Position numbers and translations under genes: made by a program | From: a virus | Taxonomy: Duplodnaviria; Heunggongvirae; Uroviricota; Caudoviricetes | Virus record (IMG/VR): IMGVR_UViG_2537562231_000020 | Direction: 5' to 3' (one strand) | Length of the DNA: 7,934 nt | The notes under the pieces: model-generated | Told to the model about the DNA's origin: nothing | Database searches by the model: none | Seen by the model: only the letters and a program-made list of their open reading frames with translations | Shown: positions 1-5,284 of the stretch, piece by piece | Layout of the letters: every line of letters starts with the position of its first letter | How positions within the stretch are numbered: the first letter of the stretch is position 1

Positions 1-299
1 ATCTGCAGGCCTGCCATAACATTACCGTACGCAGAGTAATATGCCCCACCGTACATTACCTGCCTGTTCTCTGCTCCCAGCCTGATATCCTGGATATATC
101 GGGAATCCGCATCCTGCTGTGTTATACCAGAAGTGATGTTTATGTCCTGCGTCCCGTCAAAGGGAACCCCATTAATATTTCTTGGGGTGGCGAGTCTATT
201 CGCGGCAACGGCGGTGCCGTCCGATGGCAGAGCATTCGCCGCCCTGTTTACCGTTTCCCGTAAACCGAGGTTTTCAGGAAAGCCAGGATTAACTCTGTT
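1..299 (-). CDS. Tail fibre protein, C-terminal variable segment (partial; no start codon; silent alternative copy inside an invertible segment)
   Basis: Minus-strand frame is open from 299 to the window edge, directly after an in-frame TAA (302..300). Translation: NRVNPGFPENLGLRETVNRAANALPSDGTAVAANRLATPRNINGVPFDGTQDINITSGITQQDADSRYIQDIRLGAENRQVMYGGAYYSAYGNVMAGLQ. It contains the phage tail-fibre repeat signature (RLATPRNINGVPFDGTQDINIT). No ATG/GTG/TTG lies in frame near its 5' end, and the frame runs through the 26-bp crossover site. Not in the ORF track because it has no start. Confidence 0.6.
255..280. other. 26-bp crossover site for a Gin/Hin/Pin-type invertase (gix/hix-like), right boundary of the invertible tail-fibre segment
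   Basis: TTCCCGTAAACC-GA-GGTTTTCAGGAA is an imperfect palindrome: two 12-bp half-sites (10/12 identical as inverted repeats) around a 2-bp core. It closely matches the gix left site as I recall it (TTCCTGTAAACCGAGGTTTTGGATAA). It lies 66 bp upstream of the invertase start and inside the tail-fibre reading frame. Confidence 0.7.
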
Positions 300-345
300 T
301 TATTCCTCATGCGACAATTCCGGCTTTTTATAATAAGGAAATCGT

Positions 346-918
346 ATGCTGATTGGGTATATCAGGGTGTCAACAAATGACCAGAATACGGCGCTACAAA
401 GAAATGCGCTGGAATGTGCAGGATGTGAGCTGTTTTTCGAAGACAGAATAAGCGGTAAGACAAGGGAGCGTCCCGGACTTAAACGCGCATTAAAGCGACT
501 CCGGCCAGGGGATACCCTGCTGGTCTGGAAACTGGATCGCCTTGGACGCAGTATGCAGCACCTTGTCCTTTTAACAGAAGAACTCCGGCAACGCGGCGTT
601 AACTTCCGCAGCATTACGGACAATATTGATACATCCACTCCCATGGGACGTTTCTTTTTCCATATAATGGGCGCGCTGGCGGAAATGGAGCGGGAACTCA
701 TTATTGAACGTACACGCGCGGGTCTTGCTGCTGCCCGTGCTCAGGGGCGTCATGGCGGCAGACCTCAGAAACTGACAGAGAAAGAGCGGGAGCAAATCGC
801 CCGTTTGCTGGCTAATGGCGAGTCCCGTAAACAAATCGCACTGATATTTGATATTGGCCTTTCCACCCTTTATCGTTATTTTCCTGCCTCACCAGCTCCG
901 TCACCAAAAGTACCGTGA
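346..918 (+). CDS. pin: Serine recombinase, DNA invertase of the Hin/Gin/Pin/Cin family
   Basis: 190-aa ORF with RBS AAGGA at 334-338. N-terminus MLIGYIRVSTNDQNTALQRNALECAGCE carries the catalytic serine motif; GDTLLVWKLDRLGRS, MGRFFFHIMGALAEMERELIIERTRAGL and a C-terminal HTH (KQIALIFDIGLSTLYRY) match the E. coli PinE sequence I recall over most of the length. Confidence 0.93.
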   Translation: MLIGYIRVSTNDQNTALQRNALECAGCELFFEDRISGKTRERPGLKRALKRLRPGDTLLVWKLDRLGRSMQHLVLLTEELRQRGVNFRSITDNIDTSTPMGRFFFHIMGALAEMERELIIERTRAGLAAARAQGRHGGRPQKLTEKEREQIARLLANGESRKQIALIFDIGLSTLYRYFPASPAPSPKVP

Positions 919-1003
919 CGCTTTTTTGAATTTCCGCAAAACACATATTTTTCAGCGGTCGCTATTCTGACTCTGTTTAATTCAGAAACAGGCAGAAAAG
1001 ACG

Positions 1004-3058
1004 ATGTCAGACTCCAAGTGGAAAATGCTCTCCGCCATGCCCGGAGAGTTTTCAGTCAAGGTTGCCGGTGGCACGGTGGCATTTATTGAAAGCCCTTTCC
1101 GCCCTTCGGGTAATAAAGGGGGGATCACCTTCGCAGACTGCGTGATCCGCTTCAGCACGAAAGAGCCATTATGGGTAATGCCGGTATCCGGTAATCCCAG
1201 TGCAGAAATCACCAGTTCAGGCGTGACTGGCATCATTCCAATCACATCTGACGTGGCCGGAACGCTCACGCCCTCCGACTGGAATGCACCGGATAACGCC
1301 GGGCCTTCCGGTAGCACGAATGGCAGCAGTTCAGAGCCGGAATATTACTTTGTTGTCATTCTCGCGGGTCAGTCAAATGGCATGGCCTACGGCGAGGGGC
1401 TGCCGTTACCGGATTCGTTTGACCGCCCGGACCCACGCATTAAGCAACTGGCACGCCGCAGTACGGTAACGCCCAACGGTACGTCGTGTACATACAACGA
1501 CATCATTCCGGCAGACCACTGCCTGCATGATGTTCAGGATATGAGCGGGATAAACCACCCGAAAGCTGATCTGGCAAAAGGCCAGTACGGGACTGTCGGT
1601 CAGGGGTTGCATATTGCCAAAAAACTGCTTCCCTATATCCCACAGAATGCCGGGATACTTCTGGTGCCCTGTTGTCGTGGCGGGTCAGCATTCACCACTG
1701 GAGCCGACGGCTCATTCAGTGAGGCCAGCGGTGCTTCCGCTGATTCTTCACGCTGGGGGGCCGGTAAACCTCTGTATCAGGACCTGGTAAGCCGCACCAA
1801 AGTCGCGCTGGCGAAAAACCCGAAAAACAAACTTCTGGCTGTGGTCTGGATGCAGGGAGAGGCAGACCTTGCCTCAGGAAGCCAGCAGCATAATAGTTTA
1901 TTCACGGCCATGGTTCAGCAGTTCAGAACTGACCTGGCTCCGCTTGCTGCGCAGTGCGTGAGTGGAAATGCCACCACGGTGCCGTGGATTTGCGGTGATA
2001 CCACGTATTACTGGAAAAACGCTGGCACCGATAAATATGAGGCAGTATACGGTGGCTACAAAGGCAAGGAAGCACAGAAAATTTTCTTTGTACCGTTCCT
2101 GACGGATGAGAATGGACAGAGCACGCCAACGAATGCTCCGGCGGAAGACCCGGATATTGTGGCTGTCGGGTATTACGGTGCAGCATCCCGAACCCAGGGC
2201 AGTTTTGTTTCGACACAGCGTGACAGCCATTTCAGCTCATGGGCACGCAGGGGCGTCATTTCAGACCGTCTGGCCTCAGCTATTATGCTCCATGCAGGGC
2301 GCACGGCTGAACTGATGCGCGGGCAGACCGTGACACCACCGGATGAGAAGCCGTCACCTGATACACCATCAAAACCGTCCACGCCACCCGCAGACACCAC
2401 GACGATGAGTACGCTATTTGCTTACCGGGCATCTGAGTCTGAAGGACGGTTGACACCACAGGGTTGGGCTGCCGGAGGTGGCAAGGCTCAAATCGTGGAT
2501 GATGCCGGAGCCAGCGGGGGTAAGGCAATGAAACTGACCAAGGAAACAGGAAGAGCCCCCTGGTACCTTGAGCATGATGCTGGTAATGGTGCGGACCTGC
2601 TGGGTAAAGGTGGTCTTGTCAGTTGTCGTTTTAAACTCGATGGCGCGCTTACGGCTAATCAGTACGCACTGGCGCTGTACTGGCCGGTTTCTGCCCTGCC
2701 GCAAGGGGTTACTCTGGAAGGAAATGCCGGTCATAACCTGCTGGCATCGTTCTACGTACAGAGCGATGCCACAGACCTTAACGTGATGTATCACAAAGGA
2801 AACACGGCGCAGAACACGAAGCTGGGGTCATTCGGCGCATTTAATAACGAATGGCATACGCTGGGCTTCCGTTTTGCCGGTAACAACAGTATTGAGGTGA
2901 CGCCGGTCATTGATGGTAAGGACGGGACACCATTCATGCTGTCGCAGTCTCCGGTCGGCACGTTTACGGCAGACAAGTTGCGCGTGACCGATATCACTAA
3001 AAATGCGACTTACCCGGTACTGATTGACAGTATCGTGGTGGAAGTGAATAACGCGTAA
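1004..3058 (+). CDS. SASA/SGNH-type carbohydrate O-acetylesterase (prophage NanS-p-like 9-O-acetyl-sialate esterase) with Pro/Thr linker and C-terminal lectin-like domain
   Basis: 684-aa ORF. Catalytic block VVILAGQSNGMAYGEG (GQSN motif) and downstream VVWMQGEADL (QGE-x-D block) are the signatures of the sialate O-acetylesterase (SASA/DUF303) family. A Pro/Thr-rich linker (PPDEKPSPDTPSKPSTPPADTTT, about nt 2336-2410) precedes a roughly 200-aa beta-rich C-terminal domain that looks lectin or ConA-like. Size and layout resemble the prophage NanS-p esterases of enterohaemorrhagic E. coli. Confidence 0.75.
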   Translation: MSDSKWKMLSAMPGEFSVKVAGGTVAFIESPFRPSGNKGGITFADCVIRFSTKEPLWVMPVSGNPSAEITSSGVTGIIPITSDVAGTLTPSDWNAPDNAGPSGSTNGSSSEPEYYFVVILAGQSNGMAYGEGLPLPDSFDRPDPRIKQLARRSTVTPNGTSCTYNDIIPADHCLHDVQDMSGINHPKADLAKGQYGTVGQGLHIAKKLLPYIPQNAGILLVPCCRGGSAFTTGADGSFSEASGASADSSRWGAGKPLYQDLVSRTKVALAKNPKNKLLAVVWMQGEADLASGSQQHNSLFTAMVQQFRTDLAPLAAQCVSGNATTVPWICGDTTYYWKNAGTDKYEAVYGGYKGKEAQKIFFVPFLTDENGQSTPTNAPAEDPDIVAVGYYGAASRTQGSFVSTQRDSHFSSWARRGVISDRLASAIMLHAGRTAELMRGQTVTPPDEKPSPDTPSKPSTPPADTTTMSTLFAYRASESEGRLTPQGWAAGGGKAQIVDDAGASGGKAMKLTKETGRAPWYLEHDAGNGADLLGKGGLVSCRFKLDGALTANQYALALYWPVSALPQGVTLEGNAGHNLLASFYVQSDATDLNVMYHKGNTAQNTKLGSFGAFNNEWHTLGFRFAGNNSIEVTPVIDGKDGTPFMLSQSPVGTFTADKLRVTDITKNATYPVLIDSIVVEVNNA

Positions 3059-3073
3059 GCAGGATAAAAAAAT

Positions 3074-3106
3074 GCCGCCGGTAAGGGAAAACAAGAAACC
3101 GGCGGC
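3074..3106. terminator. Stem-loop just downstream of the esterase gene; likely a transcript terminator, orientation ambiguous
   Basis: Perfect 9-bp stem GCCGCCGGT (3074-3082) / ACCGGCGGC (3098-3106) with a 15-nt loop. It is flanked by an A7 run upstream (3066-3072) and AAAAAG downstream, so the U-tract is on the minus-strand side. Confidence 0.35.
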
Positions 3107-3202
3107 AAAAAGATCGTTATATCCAAAGCAAAAAATGCAGTGCACCTTTTTACCTAACAGATATTACCGGTGTCAACACCATGTCAATAATTGGGAGGGA
3201 TA

Positions 3203-3385
3203 ATGACATTTTTACAGCTTATTTTATTGTATTTCTGCACGGCAGTATGTGCGTTATATCTGGTGAGTGGTGGTTATAAGGCCATCAGAAATTATGTTCG
3301 CCGCAAAATTGAGGACGCAGCAGCTGAAAAACTCAGTAAAACAGCGCAGGTAACTCCGCTCCCAAAAGACCCGACCCAGCCCTGA
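3203..3385 (+). CDS. Hypothetical small membrane protein (single N-terminal transmembrane helix)
   Basis: ATG at 3203 preceded by GGGAGGG (3193-3199). The ORF track starts it at TTG 3191; I prefer the ATG. Product MTFLQLILLYFCTAVCALYLVSGGYKAIRNYVRRKIEDAAAEKLSKTAQVTPLPKDPTQP has a hydrophobic N-terminus and a charged tail. I recognise no family. Confidence 0.45.
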   Translation: MTFLQLILLYFCTAVCALYLVSGGYKAIRNYVRRKIEDAAAEKLSKTAQVTPLPKDPTQP

Positions 3386-3420
3386 TTGCAGGGCTTTATT
3401 CCCGCATAAGGAGGATATAC

Positions 3421-3675
3421 ATGCCAGAAATTAAAGGCACCGTCACTGAAGACCTGGTAAAACAGGCACTGTATTCCGGTGAAGTAAATAAGTTGCTGAA
3501 AGCGCAGGTCCGCAAGGATTTTGAGGCACAAATCGACACTTACGTTGATGAAGTGCTGGCAAAACTTATTGGGCCAGCAGTTGCGGCCAGTGATGCTGAT
3601 AATGAGCCGAAAACCGACGCGCAGCCAGAGCAACCAGACCCGGCTCAGCCCGGAACTGACAGTACCATGATGTAA
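3421..3675 (+). CDS. Hypothetical small acidic protein
   Basis: 84-aa ORF with a strong RBS (AAGGAGG about 8 nt upstream of the ATG). Helical-looking N-terminal half and an acidic, Pro/Gln-rich, probably disordered C-terminal tail. I recognise no family. Confidence 0.5.
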   Translation: MPEIKGTVTEDLVKQALYSGEVNKLLKAQVRKDFEAQIDTYVDEVLAKLIGPAVAASDADNEPKTDAQPEQPDPAQPGTDSTMM

Positions 3676-3680
3676 CAATA

Positions 3681-3708
3681 CAAACCGGTGGTGTCCTCTG
3701 CCGGTTTG
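3681..3708. terminator. Hairpin between convergent genes (possible bidirectional terminator)
   Basis: Perfect 8-bp stem CAAACCGG (3681-3688) / CCGGTTTG (3701-3708) with a 12-nt loop, 6 nt after the stop of the 84-aa ORF and upstream of the convergent minus-strand gene end at 3843. U-tract is weak. Confidence 0.3.
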
Positions 3709-3842
3709 ACACTAATGAAAACATCTTTGCCGCTATCCAGCCATATGTAATCGCTGGATAGTATTTCGTATTCAGAAATATAGCTGCTTATGGAGCAGTC
3801 AATCCTGCTTCCCCATCCGGGCAGGCAAATGAACCGGTATCA

Positions 3843-4136
3843 TTAGTCCGATTCACGCTTTTGTAGAATCGTTCCCAGAATGCTATACAGCTCATTAGCC
3901 TGTTGCTCCATCATTGAGACGGAGGCTATACGGTGCAAAGTGATTTCAGGAGGTGGCACACCTCCATCTTCTTGCTGTGGAGGAAAAACATAAGATTTAA
4001 TAAAAAAGTTGAAGCATATGAACTCTCCCGCACTCGAACTGTATTTGCAGGCATCTGAATAATCGGAAAAATAATCATTATAGATTTCCGCATTTTCAAT
4101 CATTTTTCGATTTCTCGTCGTTACATGATTGTCCAT
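3843..4136 (-). CDS. Hypothetical protein, low-GC moron-like gene
   Basis: 97-aa minus-strand ORF with RBS AAGAGG 7-8 nt upstream of the ATG (complement of 4137-4150). Markedly AT-rich relative to flanking phage genes. Divergent from com/mom with its own AT-rich upstream region. I recognise no family. Confidence 0.5.
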   Translation of the reverse strand: MDNHVTTRNRKMIENAEIYNDYFSDYSDACKYSSSAGEFICFNFFIKSYVFPPQQEDGGVPPPEITLHRIASVSMMEQQANELYSILGTILQKRESD

Positions 4137-4392
4137 AGCAGCCTCTTACGCTGGCAATTAACCAATTGACTTCTATAAATTAGTTGATTTGTTTGCTTTG
4201 CGGTATTCAAATGTACAATCATTCAGCACTTATGCGTTACAGCACCGTTTAAAATTAGTGATCAAACTCATAAATTTTCGCTAATGACATTTCGTGTTAT
4301 TTGTTGTATCAATTAAATAAATCAAATCGATCGTTTTTGTCGATCGATTGAGTGATAAAGATATCAACAACAAAGCAGGAGGTTATGCGGCC
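4137..4392. promoter_or_regulatory. AT-rich divergent intergenic control region with a GATC triad and an ATCGATCG/CGATCGAT palindrome upstream of com
   Basis: 256-bp AT-rich spacer between divergent genes. Sigma70-like hexamers are present (for example TTTGCT 4192-4197 with TACAAT 4214-4219; ATGACA 4284-4289 with TATCAA 4307-4312). Three GATC sites at 4260, 4329 and 4342; the last two sit in the inverted repeat ATCGATCG (4326-4333) ... CGATCGAT (4341-4348). Exact promoter positions are not determinable by eye. Confidence 0.4.
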
Positions 4393-4593
4393 ATGTATCG
4401 AAACATACGGTGCCGACATTGTAACAAGCTACTGGCACGAGCCAGCTTCAGTTATCTGGAAGTTAAATGTCCGCGCTGTAAAACCCTCAATCAAATCACA
4501 TCTCAGAGCGCCACAGAGCACCCCACATACACAAGGAAATCCTGTCGTGGGGAACAGAAAGCAAGTTACATCCCGTATCATCAGCACGCCTGA
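4393..4593 (+). CDS. com: Com-like zinc-finger translational activator
   Basis: ATG at 4393 with RBS AGGAGG (4377-4382). Product [32 protein letters not shown]... has the paired C-x2-C zinc-finger layout and near-identical spacing to phage Mu Com as I recall it (IRCKNCNKLL...IEVRCPRCK). The ORF-track start at TTG 4348 is an upstream extension I consider unlikely. Confidence 0.85.
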
Positions 4594-5284
4594 ACTTATT
4601 CACTATAACGACAATATCGTCGGTTATGGCTCCCGTGAGTTACGGGTTGAGACAATAAGTTGCTGGCTGGCCCGGCTGGTCGTCGTCAATAAACATTACA
4701 GCCATCGTTTCGTAAATAATTCCTACCTTCATCTGGGCATATTTTCAGAACGGGAGCTGGTTGGCGTAATGCAATGGGGTTATGCCCTTAATCCAAACAA
4801 TGGTGCACGCGTCGTAACTGGCACGCAGAACCGCGAATATATGGAGCTTAACCGGTTATGGCTGCATGACTGTATGCCGAGAAACTCCGAATCAAGGGCA
4901 ATCAGTTACGCGCTCAAACTAATCAGACAACTTTATCCGCAGGTGCAGTGGGTTCAGTCGTTTGCAGATGAGCGTTGTGGCTGTCTTGGTGTCGTGTACC
5001 AGGCAAGCAATTTTGATTATGTAGGCAGTCATGAAACAACATTCTATGAACTTGATGGCGAGTGGTATCACGAGATTTGCAAGAATGCAATCAAACGAGG
5101 AGGACAGCGAGGTGAACATCTGCGGGCTAATATCGACAGAGCCAGTGTTCATAAATTCCGTCAGTTTCGTTACATCCGGTTTCTGGACAAGAGAGCCAGA
5201 AAACGCCTTAACACAAAGCTATTCAAAGTCCAGCCTTACCCAAAACCACAAACAGTTAAAACTGGTTTGAAAGAGAGTGAATGA
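4547..5284 (+). CDS. mom: Mom-like DNA modification protein (acyltransferase-type adenine modification; anti-restriction)
   Basis: Long ORF in a different frame overlapping the 3' end of com, as in the Mu com-mom operon, and sitting downstream of a Gin-family invertase as in Mu. 3' end is firm (stop 5282-5284). The start is uncertain: I placed it at GTG 4547, which is in frame with AAGGA 9 nt upstream, giving 245 aa; the first in-frame ATG is much further downstream. Assignment is mainly by gene context; I could not verify the Mom sequence from memory. Confidence 0.6.

Follow-up and report, generated by a model that had tools for sequence, protein, structure and literature searches.

In phages Mu, D108, and SfMu the right arm runs from the invertible tail-fiber G segment through gin, com, and mom to a right end with three sites, and no genes lie between gin and com, which are separated by 94, 82, and 82 bp, respectively. 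The Mu-like prophage Sp18 of Escherichia coli O157:H7 Sakai (ECs_4943-ECs_4998), which has been drawn against Mu (PMC2669165), has an expanded interval: its invertase gene (ECs_4992) is followed by ECs_4993 (2,040 bp), ECs_4994, ECs_4995, the reverse-oriented ECs_4996, com (ECs_4997), and mom (ECs_4998). Sp18-like phages have strain-specific integration sites (PMC7430833); in closed CC119 genomes, 6 of 10 were found inside mobile elements, and several Shiga toxin (Stx) phages carry such insertions (PMC10132054). The subject of this analysis is a stretch of 7,934 bp, hereafter the window, which constitutes an entire contig of a draft assembly (GCA_000184765.2, contig ADUM01000004.1; IMG/VR record IMGVR_UViG_2537562231_000020) and in which the right-arm gene order of Sp18 is followed directly by lambdoid tail genes. 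With a probability of about 0.9, positions 1-5412 are the right arm and right terminus of an Sp18-type Mu-like prophage of E. coli that has transposed into the tape-measure gene of a resident lambdoid prophage, to which positions 5413-7934 belong.

The arrangement is an example of known biology, one of nested transposition and not a chimeric phage, and the element is not of a new kind. Modestly new are a lineage-specific N-terminal domain in the esterase of the cargo, a cassette slot that reassorts, and a target duplication of 4 bp. A preliminary description of the window had placed the invertase (346-918), com (4393-4593), and mom (4547-5284) genes in Mu order, with about 3.4 kb of extra DNA between the first two. 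This observation is correct, since the genes have the identities claimed, all on the + strand, and the interval measures 3,474 bp, far more than the 94 bp of Mu or the 82 bp of D108 and SfMu; the right arms of Sp18 and of strain Z852 have this gene order too, with the expanded interval. The expansion is normal for the Sp18 lineage and could already be seen in the Sakai reference genome when that was published. The proposal of an insertion hotspot is thus retained in part: the accessory genes have no counterpart in Mu, D108, or SfMu, and a variable slot precedes com, but the cargo is neither recent nor special, being standard Sp18 architecture. The unit is also larger than the 346-5284 first delimited, and extends from a piece of the invertible tail-fiber segment (1-281) to the transposon end at 5412.

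The Right Arm and Its Terminus

In a megablast search of 5,426 complete E. coli genomes, positions 1-5412 are present at 99.9-100% identity in more than 13 chromosomes. Most of these right-arm matches end at 5412, and a few extend 1-18 bases beyond it. The module formed by com, mom, and the right end is more widespread, occurring in 226 of the genomes at 94-100% identity and up to the same last base. Past this base the flanks of the 226 copies are unrelated to one another and include a yeeS-like JAB gene, bcsA, a motility gene, sorM, dcuC, psiE, yfcC, fimD, and phage genes. The full cargo accompanies the module in 27 genomes with the window type and in 168 with the Sp18 type (approximately 195 of the 226), and 34 IMG/VR prophage contigs keep the gene order.

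The Mu-type origin postulated earlier is borne out by the prophages whose right arms are 99.98-100% identical to 1-5412, which encode a Mu-type transposase, B, and head and tail genes. One of them, in strain JKHS016 (locus L001, NZ_CP147059.1), lies within a yeeS-like JAB gene and has the identical block as its right end. The regulatory and early genes of this prophage comprise a c repressor, ner, a transposase with the Mu C-terminal domain, the AAA ATPase B, gam, and mor, and its late genes comprise a lysozyme, gp27, gp29/DUF935, the gpT major head protein, and sheath, tube, baseplate, and tail-fiber genes. Transposase, B, and regulatory genes are also found in the Sp18 and Z852 elements. The JKHS016 prophage is itself rearranged (L001:8910-18421), with truncated portal, tape-measure, protease, and DNA-circularization genes and an inverted head-to-tail block, and this copy is therefore defective, despite a right arm of the same sequence as that in the window.

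The right end (attR) occupies positions 5285-5412 and terminates in ...CGCCGCGCTATA. The distance from the mom stop codon to the terminus is 128 bp, compared with 115 bp in Mu. Within these terminal 128 bp the repeat GTATCAAA occurs three times (at 5331, 5366, and 5388). Comparison with relatives places TTTGATAC at offset 18 from both the left and the right termini, with further copies at offsets 40 and 75 of the right end; read inward, this is a Mu-like R1-R2-R3/L1 layout, and the repeats are putative transposase-binding sites. The right terminus ends in 3'-TA and not CA, and the left end in S1-CAM-01-A also has TA (TATAACC vs. TGTAACC). The comparison of termini and junctions covered window positions 5401-5412 and the loci L003:11204, L001:25412, L010:271, L006:9725, L011:4684, L002:11139, L050:2969, and L008:9562.

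A 4-bp target duplication is present in all four relatives compared (TAAA in Sakai, TAAG in JKHS016, CACT in Z852, and GACG in S1-CAM-01-A). When the empty site of Sakai is rebuilt with a single TAAA, it agrees with intact sorM at 92/92 nt. The duplication, the verified empty site, and the fixed end with varying flanks are the marks of a transposable phage. With Sp18 the window shares the end repeats and the 4-bp duplication, a com-mom-end region that is 95% identical, and a terminal 127 bp that is 100% identical. By contrast, the invertase and esterase genes of the two elements have only ~70% nucleotide identity and the DUF1378 and DUF826 genes ~78%; the cassettes before com are unrelated, and the insertions lie in sorM in Sakai and in a tape-measure gene in the window. 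Similarity to Mu at the nucleotide level is limited to gin and mom (~70-72%).

Probable Insertion into a Lambdoid Prophage

Immediately after the terminus, positions 5413-6944 (+ strand) encode the C-terminal 510 codons of a lambdoid tail tape-measure protein (PF06120 and PF09718). From 5413 onward the sequence is collinear with, and 97.8% identical to, the tape-measure gene of phage Lys8385Vzw from nt 1,712 of 3,243; the first 570 of 1,080 codons (53%) are therefore missing and 47% of the gene remains. The minor tail protein genes M (6937-7278, + strand; PF05939, E 3.3e-29) and L (7278-7934, + strand; PF05100, a minor tail protein in the matching phages) follow, the latter running off the contig, and over 5413-7934 as a whole the identity to Stx and other lambdoid phages is 97-98%. 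The chimera of a Mu-type element attached to lambda-like tail genes, as first suggested, does not withstand this comparison: the Mu-like genome extends no further than its own end (5412), and the tape-measure gene resumes at codon 571. Two open reading frames (ORFs) that cross the join, 5277-6944 (555 aa) and 5373-6944 (523 aa), are fusions of 13-45 right-end codons to the C-terminal half of the tape-measure gene, and are thus read-through artifacts that begin in the phage end; gene callers list the 523-aa version as a protein with tape-measure Pfam domains.

If the insertion arose by transposition, the left junction would join nt 1-1,711 of the tape-measure gene, with ...TTCGTCA as their last bases, to TGTAACCAGGTGAATC..., and GTCA would be duplicated. 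The expected left end would read TGTAACCAGG... with the duplicated GTCA, and some 33 kb of Mu-like genome would precede base 1 of the window. A complete parallel is available in strain Z852 (O157:H7), where lambdoid head and tail genes and a truncated T gene are followed by a whole Sp18-type prophage and then by the rest of T, tape-measure, M, and L. That insertion lies in tail assembly gene T, ~1.9 kb upstream of the site equivalent to codon 571 in the window. Stx phages with an inserted Mu-like phage (e.g., LC727881, Stx2c_JNE082796) show the same nesting at other insertion points. Disruption of the tape-measure gene leaves the resident lambdoid prophage unable to assemble a normal tail.

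The junction at 5412/5413 might instead be an assembly artifact in a short draft contig bounded by repeats, given that the 7,934 bp start in an invertible repeat region, finish in a tail gene of which E. coli has multiple copies, and contain a junction seen in no other genome searched. Misjoins, however, arise at shared repeats, and the two sides of this junction share no sequence; moreover, the break falls on a biological terminus with single-base precision, and any Mu-type insertion should be found in one strain only. An artifact is on these grounds highly improbable.

A second alternative is a functional hybrid phage, in which recombination would have joined lambdoid tail genes to the right arm of a Mu-like phage. 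The two modules are adjacent and on the same strand, and one open frame (5277-6944) crosses the join; yet the tape-measure product would miss 53% of its length, the join is the exact transposon terminus common to 226 genomes and not a site of homology, and in Z852 both halves of an interrupted lambdoid tail region flank a complete Mu-like prophage. With the terminus, the truncation, and the Z852 parallel all against it, the hybrid was rejected as extremely unlikely.

Several points weigh against nested transposition. No complete E. coli genome covers 5412/5413, and a 35-mer spanning the junction is absent from the GTDB representatives; a misjoin is a formal possibility, although one that fell precisely on the end of the phage would be very improbable. 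Because the window is the whole draft contig, it shows neither the upstream Mu-like genes nor the left junction and duplication of the source genome. With the left junction outside the contig, we infer transposition as the origin of the copy in the source strain. The family also differs from Mu in that its target duplication is 4 bp and that of Mu is 5 bp, in its 3'-TA instead of 3'-CA, and in end repeats unlike the MuA consensus (...RCGAAAR); together with the 3,474-bp gap, these features set the element apart from Muvirus. Finally, no paper in the literature searched names both nanS-p and Mu-like, and in a Mu-like context the activity of the esterase is predicted by homology, and the expression and regulation of the cargo are putative.

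The Esterase Cargo

The first gene of the cargo (1004-3058, + strand) encodes a NanS-p-type sialate 9-O-acetylesterase of 684 aa with Pfam SASA and DUF6645 domains, in agreement with the esterase-lectin gene described previously. The protein is arranged into a lineage-specific N-terminal domain (1004-1333), the SASA catalytic domain, a Pro/Thr-rich linker, and the C-terminal, lectin-like DUF6645. The structure of chromosomal NanS (3PT5) is matched by residues 110-428 (E 1.8e-117), in which the GQSN motif and the SHFSS histidine region are conserved; further along, residues 469-683 correspond to the C-terminal domain of NanS-p (6YP6, E 7e-98). By homology to 3PT5, the enzyme is predicted to remove 9-O-acetyl groups from sialic acids. 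Two small genes follow on the + strand, one for a membrane-like DUF1378 protein (3203-3385; PF07125, E 1.2e-31) and one for a DUF826 protein (3421-3675; PF05696, E 6.4e-16), the third gene of the esterase block. These had been counted among three small unknown genes, but they are not independent of the esterase gene and make up a single block with it.

Outside the Sp18 lineage these three genes are typical of the late regions of lambdoid phages. Strain 14EC001 has a lambdoid prophage (L007) with the order tRNAs, esterase, DUF1378, DUF826, holin, and lysozyme, and the NanS-p proteins of Stx and other lambdoid prophages (933W, phi24B gp84; 6YP6) share with the window the SASA catalytic domain, as NanS does (3PT5), the lectin-like C-terminal domain, and the succeeding DUF1378 and DUF826 genes. 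However, the lambdoid proteins begin with DUF1737, replaced here by an unrelated domain of ~105 aa found only in Mu-like prophages, and their genes lie between Q/stx and holin, whereas the window gene follows the invertase near a transposon end. The trio and the lambdoid tail genes that directly follow the arm could suggest that the block from invertase to mom is a moron cassette of a lambdoid late region and the window a single lambdoid element, but this was rejected as extremely improbable, given a tape-measure gene without its first 570 codons, identical copies of 1-5412 that end complete Mu-like prophages at unrelated chromosomal sites, lambdoid-like homology that covers only 1334-3261, and cargo neighbors that are the invertase and com with no holin, Q, or late promoter context.

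Over 1334-3261 the window has 88% nucleotide identity to the lambdoid late-region copy, and the same esterase-body stretch is only ~70% identical to that of the sister lineage Sp18; the body is therefore still exchanged with lambdoid copies. Composition was considered as a sign of foreign origin and discarded, the esterase gene (55% GC) being indistinguishable from the Mu-like backbone (50-55%). The low-GC islet that had been attributed to the cargo, and for which a comparison of 1004-4136 with its flanks had been proposed, is accordingly smaller than supposed: DUF826 (50%) and DUF1378 (45%) lie within or near the backbone range, and low GC (32-38%) is confined to ~3900-4350, which comprises the orphan ORF of the cassette and the region before com. 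Promoter and terminator scans of the window gave no more sites than shuffled sequence, and hence no separate cargo promoter is claimed. Rfam and tRNA scans of the window found no RNA genes.

The Esterase N-Terminal Domain

The first 110 codons of the esterase gene (1004-1333) are not lambdoid. Alignment with the lambdoid copy gives unrelated N-termini, and homology begins exactly at the domain boundary (1334 onward). The domain, of ~105 aa, is predicted to be all-beta and to stand in place of DUF1737; residues 1-109 have no match in Pfam, to DUF1737 or otherwise, and the domain is shared with Sp18 at 58%. It is nearly an orphan, with three hits in a full HMMER scan of 1.84 billion representative proteins. 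These include just one distant relative (29-31% identity), which likewise heads an esterase and lies downstream of an invertase in another Mu-like prophage (L013), where two additional small ORFs separate the two genes. A word-index search returned fragments only, and a pattern scan of GTDB found no relative. An AlphaFold model built from two sequences is of low confidence (pLDDT 54.8), and a Foldseek comparison of this model with viral structures gave nothing at E <= 0.001.

The domain is of interest because a phi24B preprint reports that the DUF1737 of the homologous esterase is a capsid-binding decoration domain, anchoring to hexons. By analogy, it is conceivable, though rather unlikely, that the N-terminal domain is a virion anchor for Mu-like particles, which would make the cargo a swappable enzymatic decoration and not a lysogenic-conversion moron. 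The anchor may then have been kept by the lineage while the enzyme body was exchanged with lambdoid prophages. Such a role would fit the occurrence of the domain only on esterases downstream of the invertases of Mu-like prophages, including the one distant relative, and the start of lambdoid homology right at the domain boundary.

The Variable Slot Upstream of com

Between DUF826 and a conserved 110-bp region before com lies a slot (3705-4283) that has no similarity to Sp18. Three main cassettes (717, 610, and 851-930 bp) occupy it among 29 loci, each carrying small ORFs without known function, and their combinations do not track the esterase type. The window cassette holds a low-GC orphan ORF on the - strand (3843-4136; 97 aa, or 86 aa from 4103), whose place is taken in Sp18 by the 154-aa ECs_4996. 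The orphan has no Pfam, PHROG, NCBIfam, or PADLOC family, and its homologs are near-identical and confined to E. coli and Shigella. In the cassette of the Sp18 type, one ORF, of 64 aa, has two CPAC motifs. The slot is the sole truly variable part of the invertase-com interval, in which small genes are swapped between copies.

The com-mom Operon

The conserved region preceding com (4284-4392, + strand) is 95% identical to Sp18 from 4284 onward. It contains the palindrome AATCGATCG-N7-CGATCGATT (4325-4349), a perfect 9-bp inverted repeat with two GATC sites. Sites of this sequence are found at 4260, 4329, and 4342, and 11 occur in the whole window. Only 44-68 nt separate the palindrome from the com ATG, a far shorter distance than in Mu. 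It resembles the GATC cluster of the Mu gin-com spacer, with which the region also has in common the GATC-containing motif AAATCGATCG...GATCGATT before com. The matching Mu region upstream of com is under Dam/OxyR control.

The com gene (4393-4593, + strand) encodes a zinc-ribbon translational activator of mom (PF10122 Zn_ribbon_Com, E 1.3e-12; phrog_6417/13819) with 45% amino acid identity to Mu Com. Its end overlaps the start of mom (4547-5284, + strand), which encodes an adenine-N6 DNA hypermodification enzyme of anti-restriction function (PF25680, E 1.6e-77). Mom has 78% amino acid identity to Mu Mom and conserves the equivalents of the essential catalytic residues R111 and S124. As established for the homologs, com-mom would form a late, tightly controlled operon in which Com unlocks the translation of Mom, and Mom would hypermodify adenines of the phage DNA, so that restriction enzymes could not cut it. 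A predicted hairpin that pairs the mom GUG start codon is weak and no better than shuffles (z = -1.35), and is no more than consistent with the Mu mechanism. The glycine that Mom attaches to N6 of adenine in DNA is taken from Gly-tRNA(Gly), and the product rearranges to a carbamoylmethyl adduct that blocks restriction (PMC13219725).

In some Sp18-type prophages mom is replaced by a gene that follows com and encodes a C5 cytosine DNA methyltransferase (350 aa, GGTPCQAFS), with the same right end; this arrangement was seen at L037:12221-13472 (IMG/VR) and in a complete-genome match (H177). Phage D108 (L048:2898-3344) has an additional, D108-specific gene between mom and the right end, so that in the Mu group accessory genes gather on the far side of mom too.

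Tail-Fiber Segment and Invertase

Positions 1-281 (- strand) are the 3' part of an alternative, S'-like tail-fiber gene in an invertible segment of G type. In the 100% identical locus L001 the counterpart is annotated as "phage tail protein, missing N-terminus," and an 86-nt inverted repeat pairs this fragment with a fiber gene on the + strand. A gix-type crossover site, a 34-bp inverted repeat at 241-274 (core ttcccgtaaaccgaggttttcaggaa at 258-283), has 97% identity over 34 nt to the boundary repeat of the Mu G segment in either orientation; its partner repeat lies ~1.2 kb away in relatives. A + strand ORF of 65-66 aa (136-333), antisense to the fiber fragment and extending across gix, has been annotated as a gene both in the source record and in Z852 and is probably spurious.

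The invertase (346-918, + strand) is a serine recombinase of the Gin/Pin family with Resolvase and HTH_7 domains (PF00239, E 1.6e-51, and PF02796; phrog_125). It has 74% amino acid identity to Mu Gin and keeps the catalytic Ser9 context MLIGYIRVSTNDQ. As its homologs do, it would flip the short tail-fiber segment at the 34-bp gix sites and thereby switch host range. The invertase and the adjacent fiber fragment have been lost in several relatives (L008, which is NZ_CP145714.1, L018, L019, L023, and L026), in which the match starts at window position 852; this loss would lock the tail-fiber segment in one orientation.

Concluding Remarks

For annotation, the comparison corrects the tempting misreading of the window as a single chimera, since it spans two nested prophages. 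The 4-bp duplication is a small testable lead on the geometry of the transposition complex, and the replaced N-terminal domain of the esterase is one on virion decoration. Insertions such as this one are one route by which E. coli accumulates defective prophages. NanS-p-type esterase genes, discussed in the literature as genes of lambdoid and Stx phages, are a fixed part of a transposable-phage lineage too, which is present in ~4% of complete E. coli genomes and in which sequence exchange with the lambdoid copies continues.

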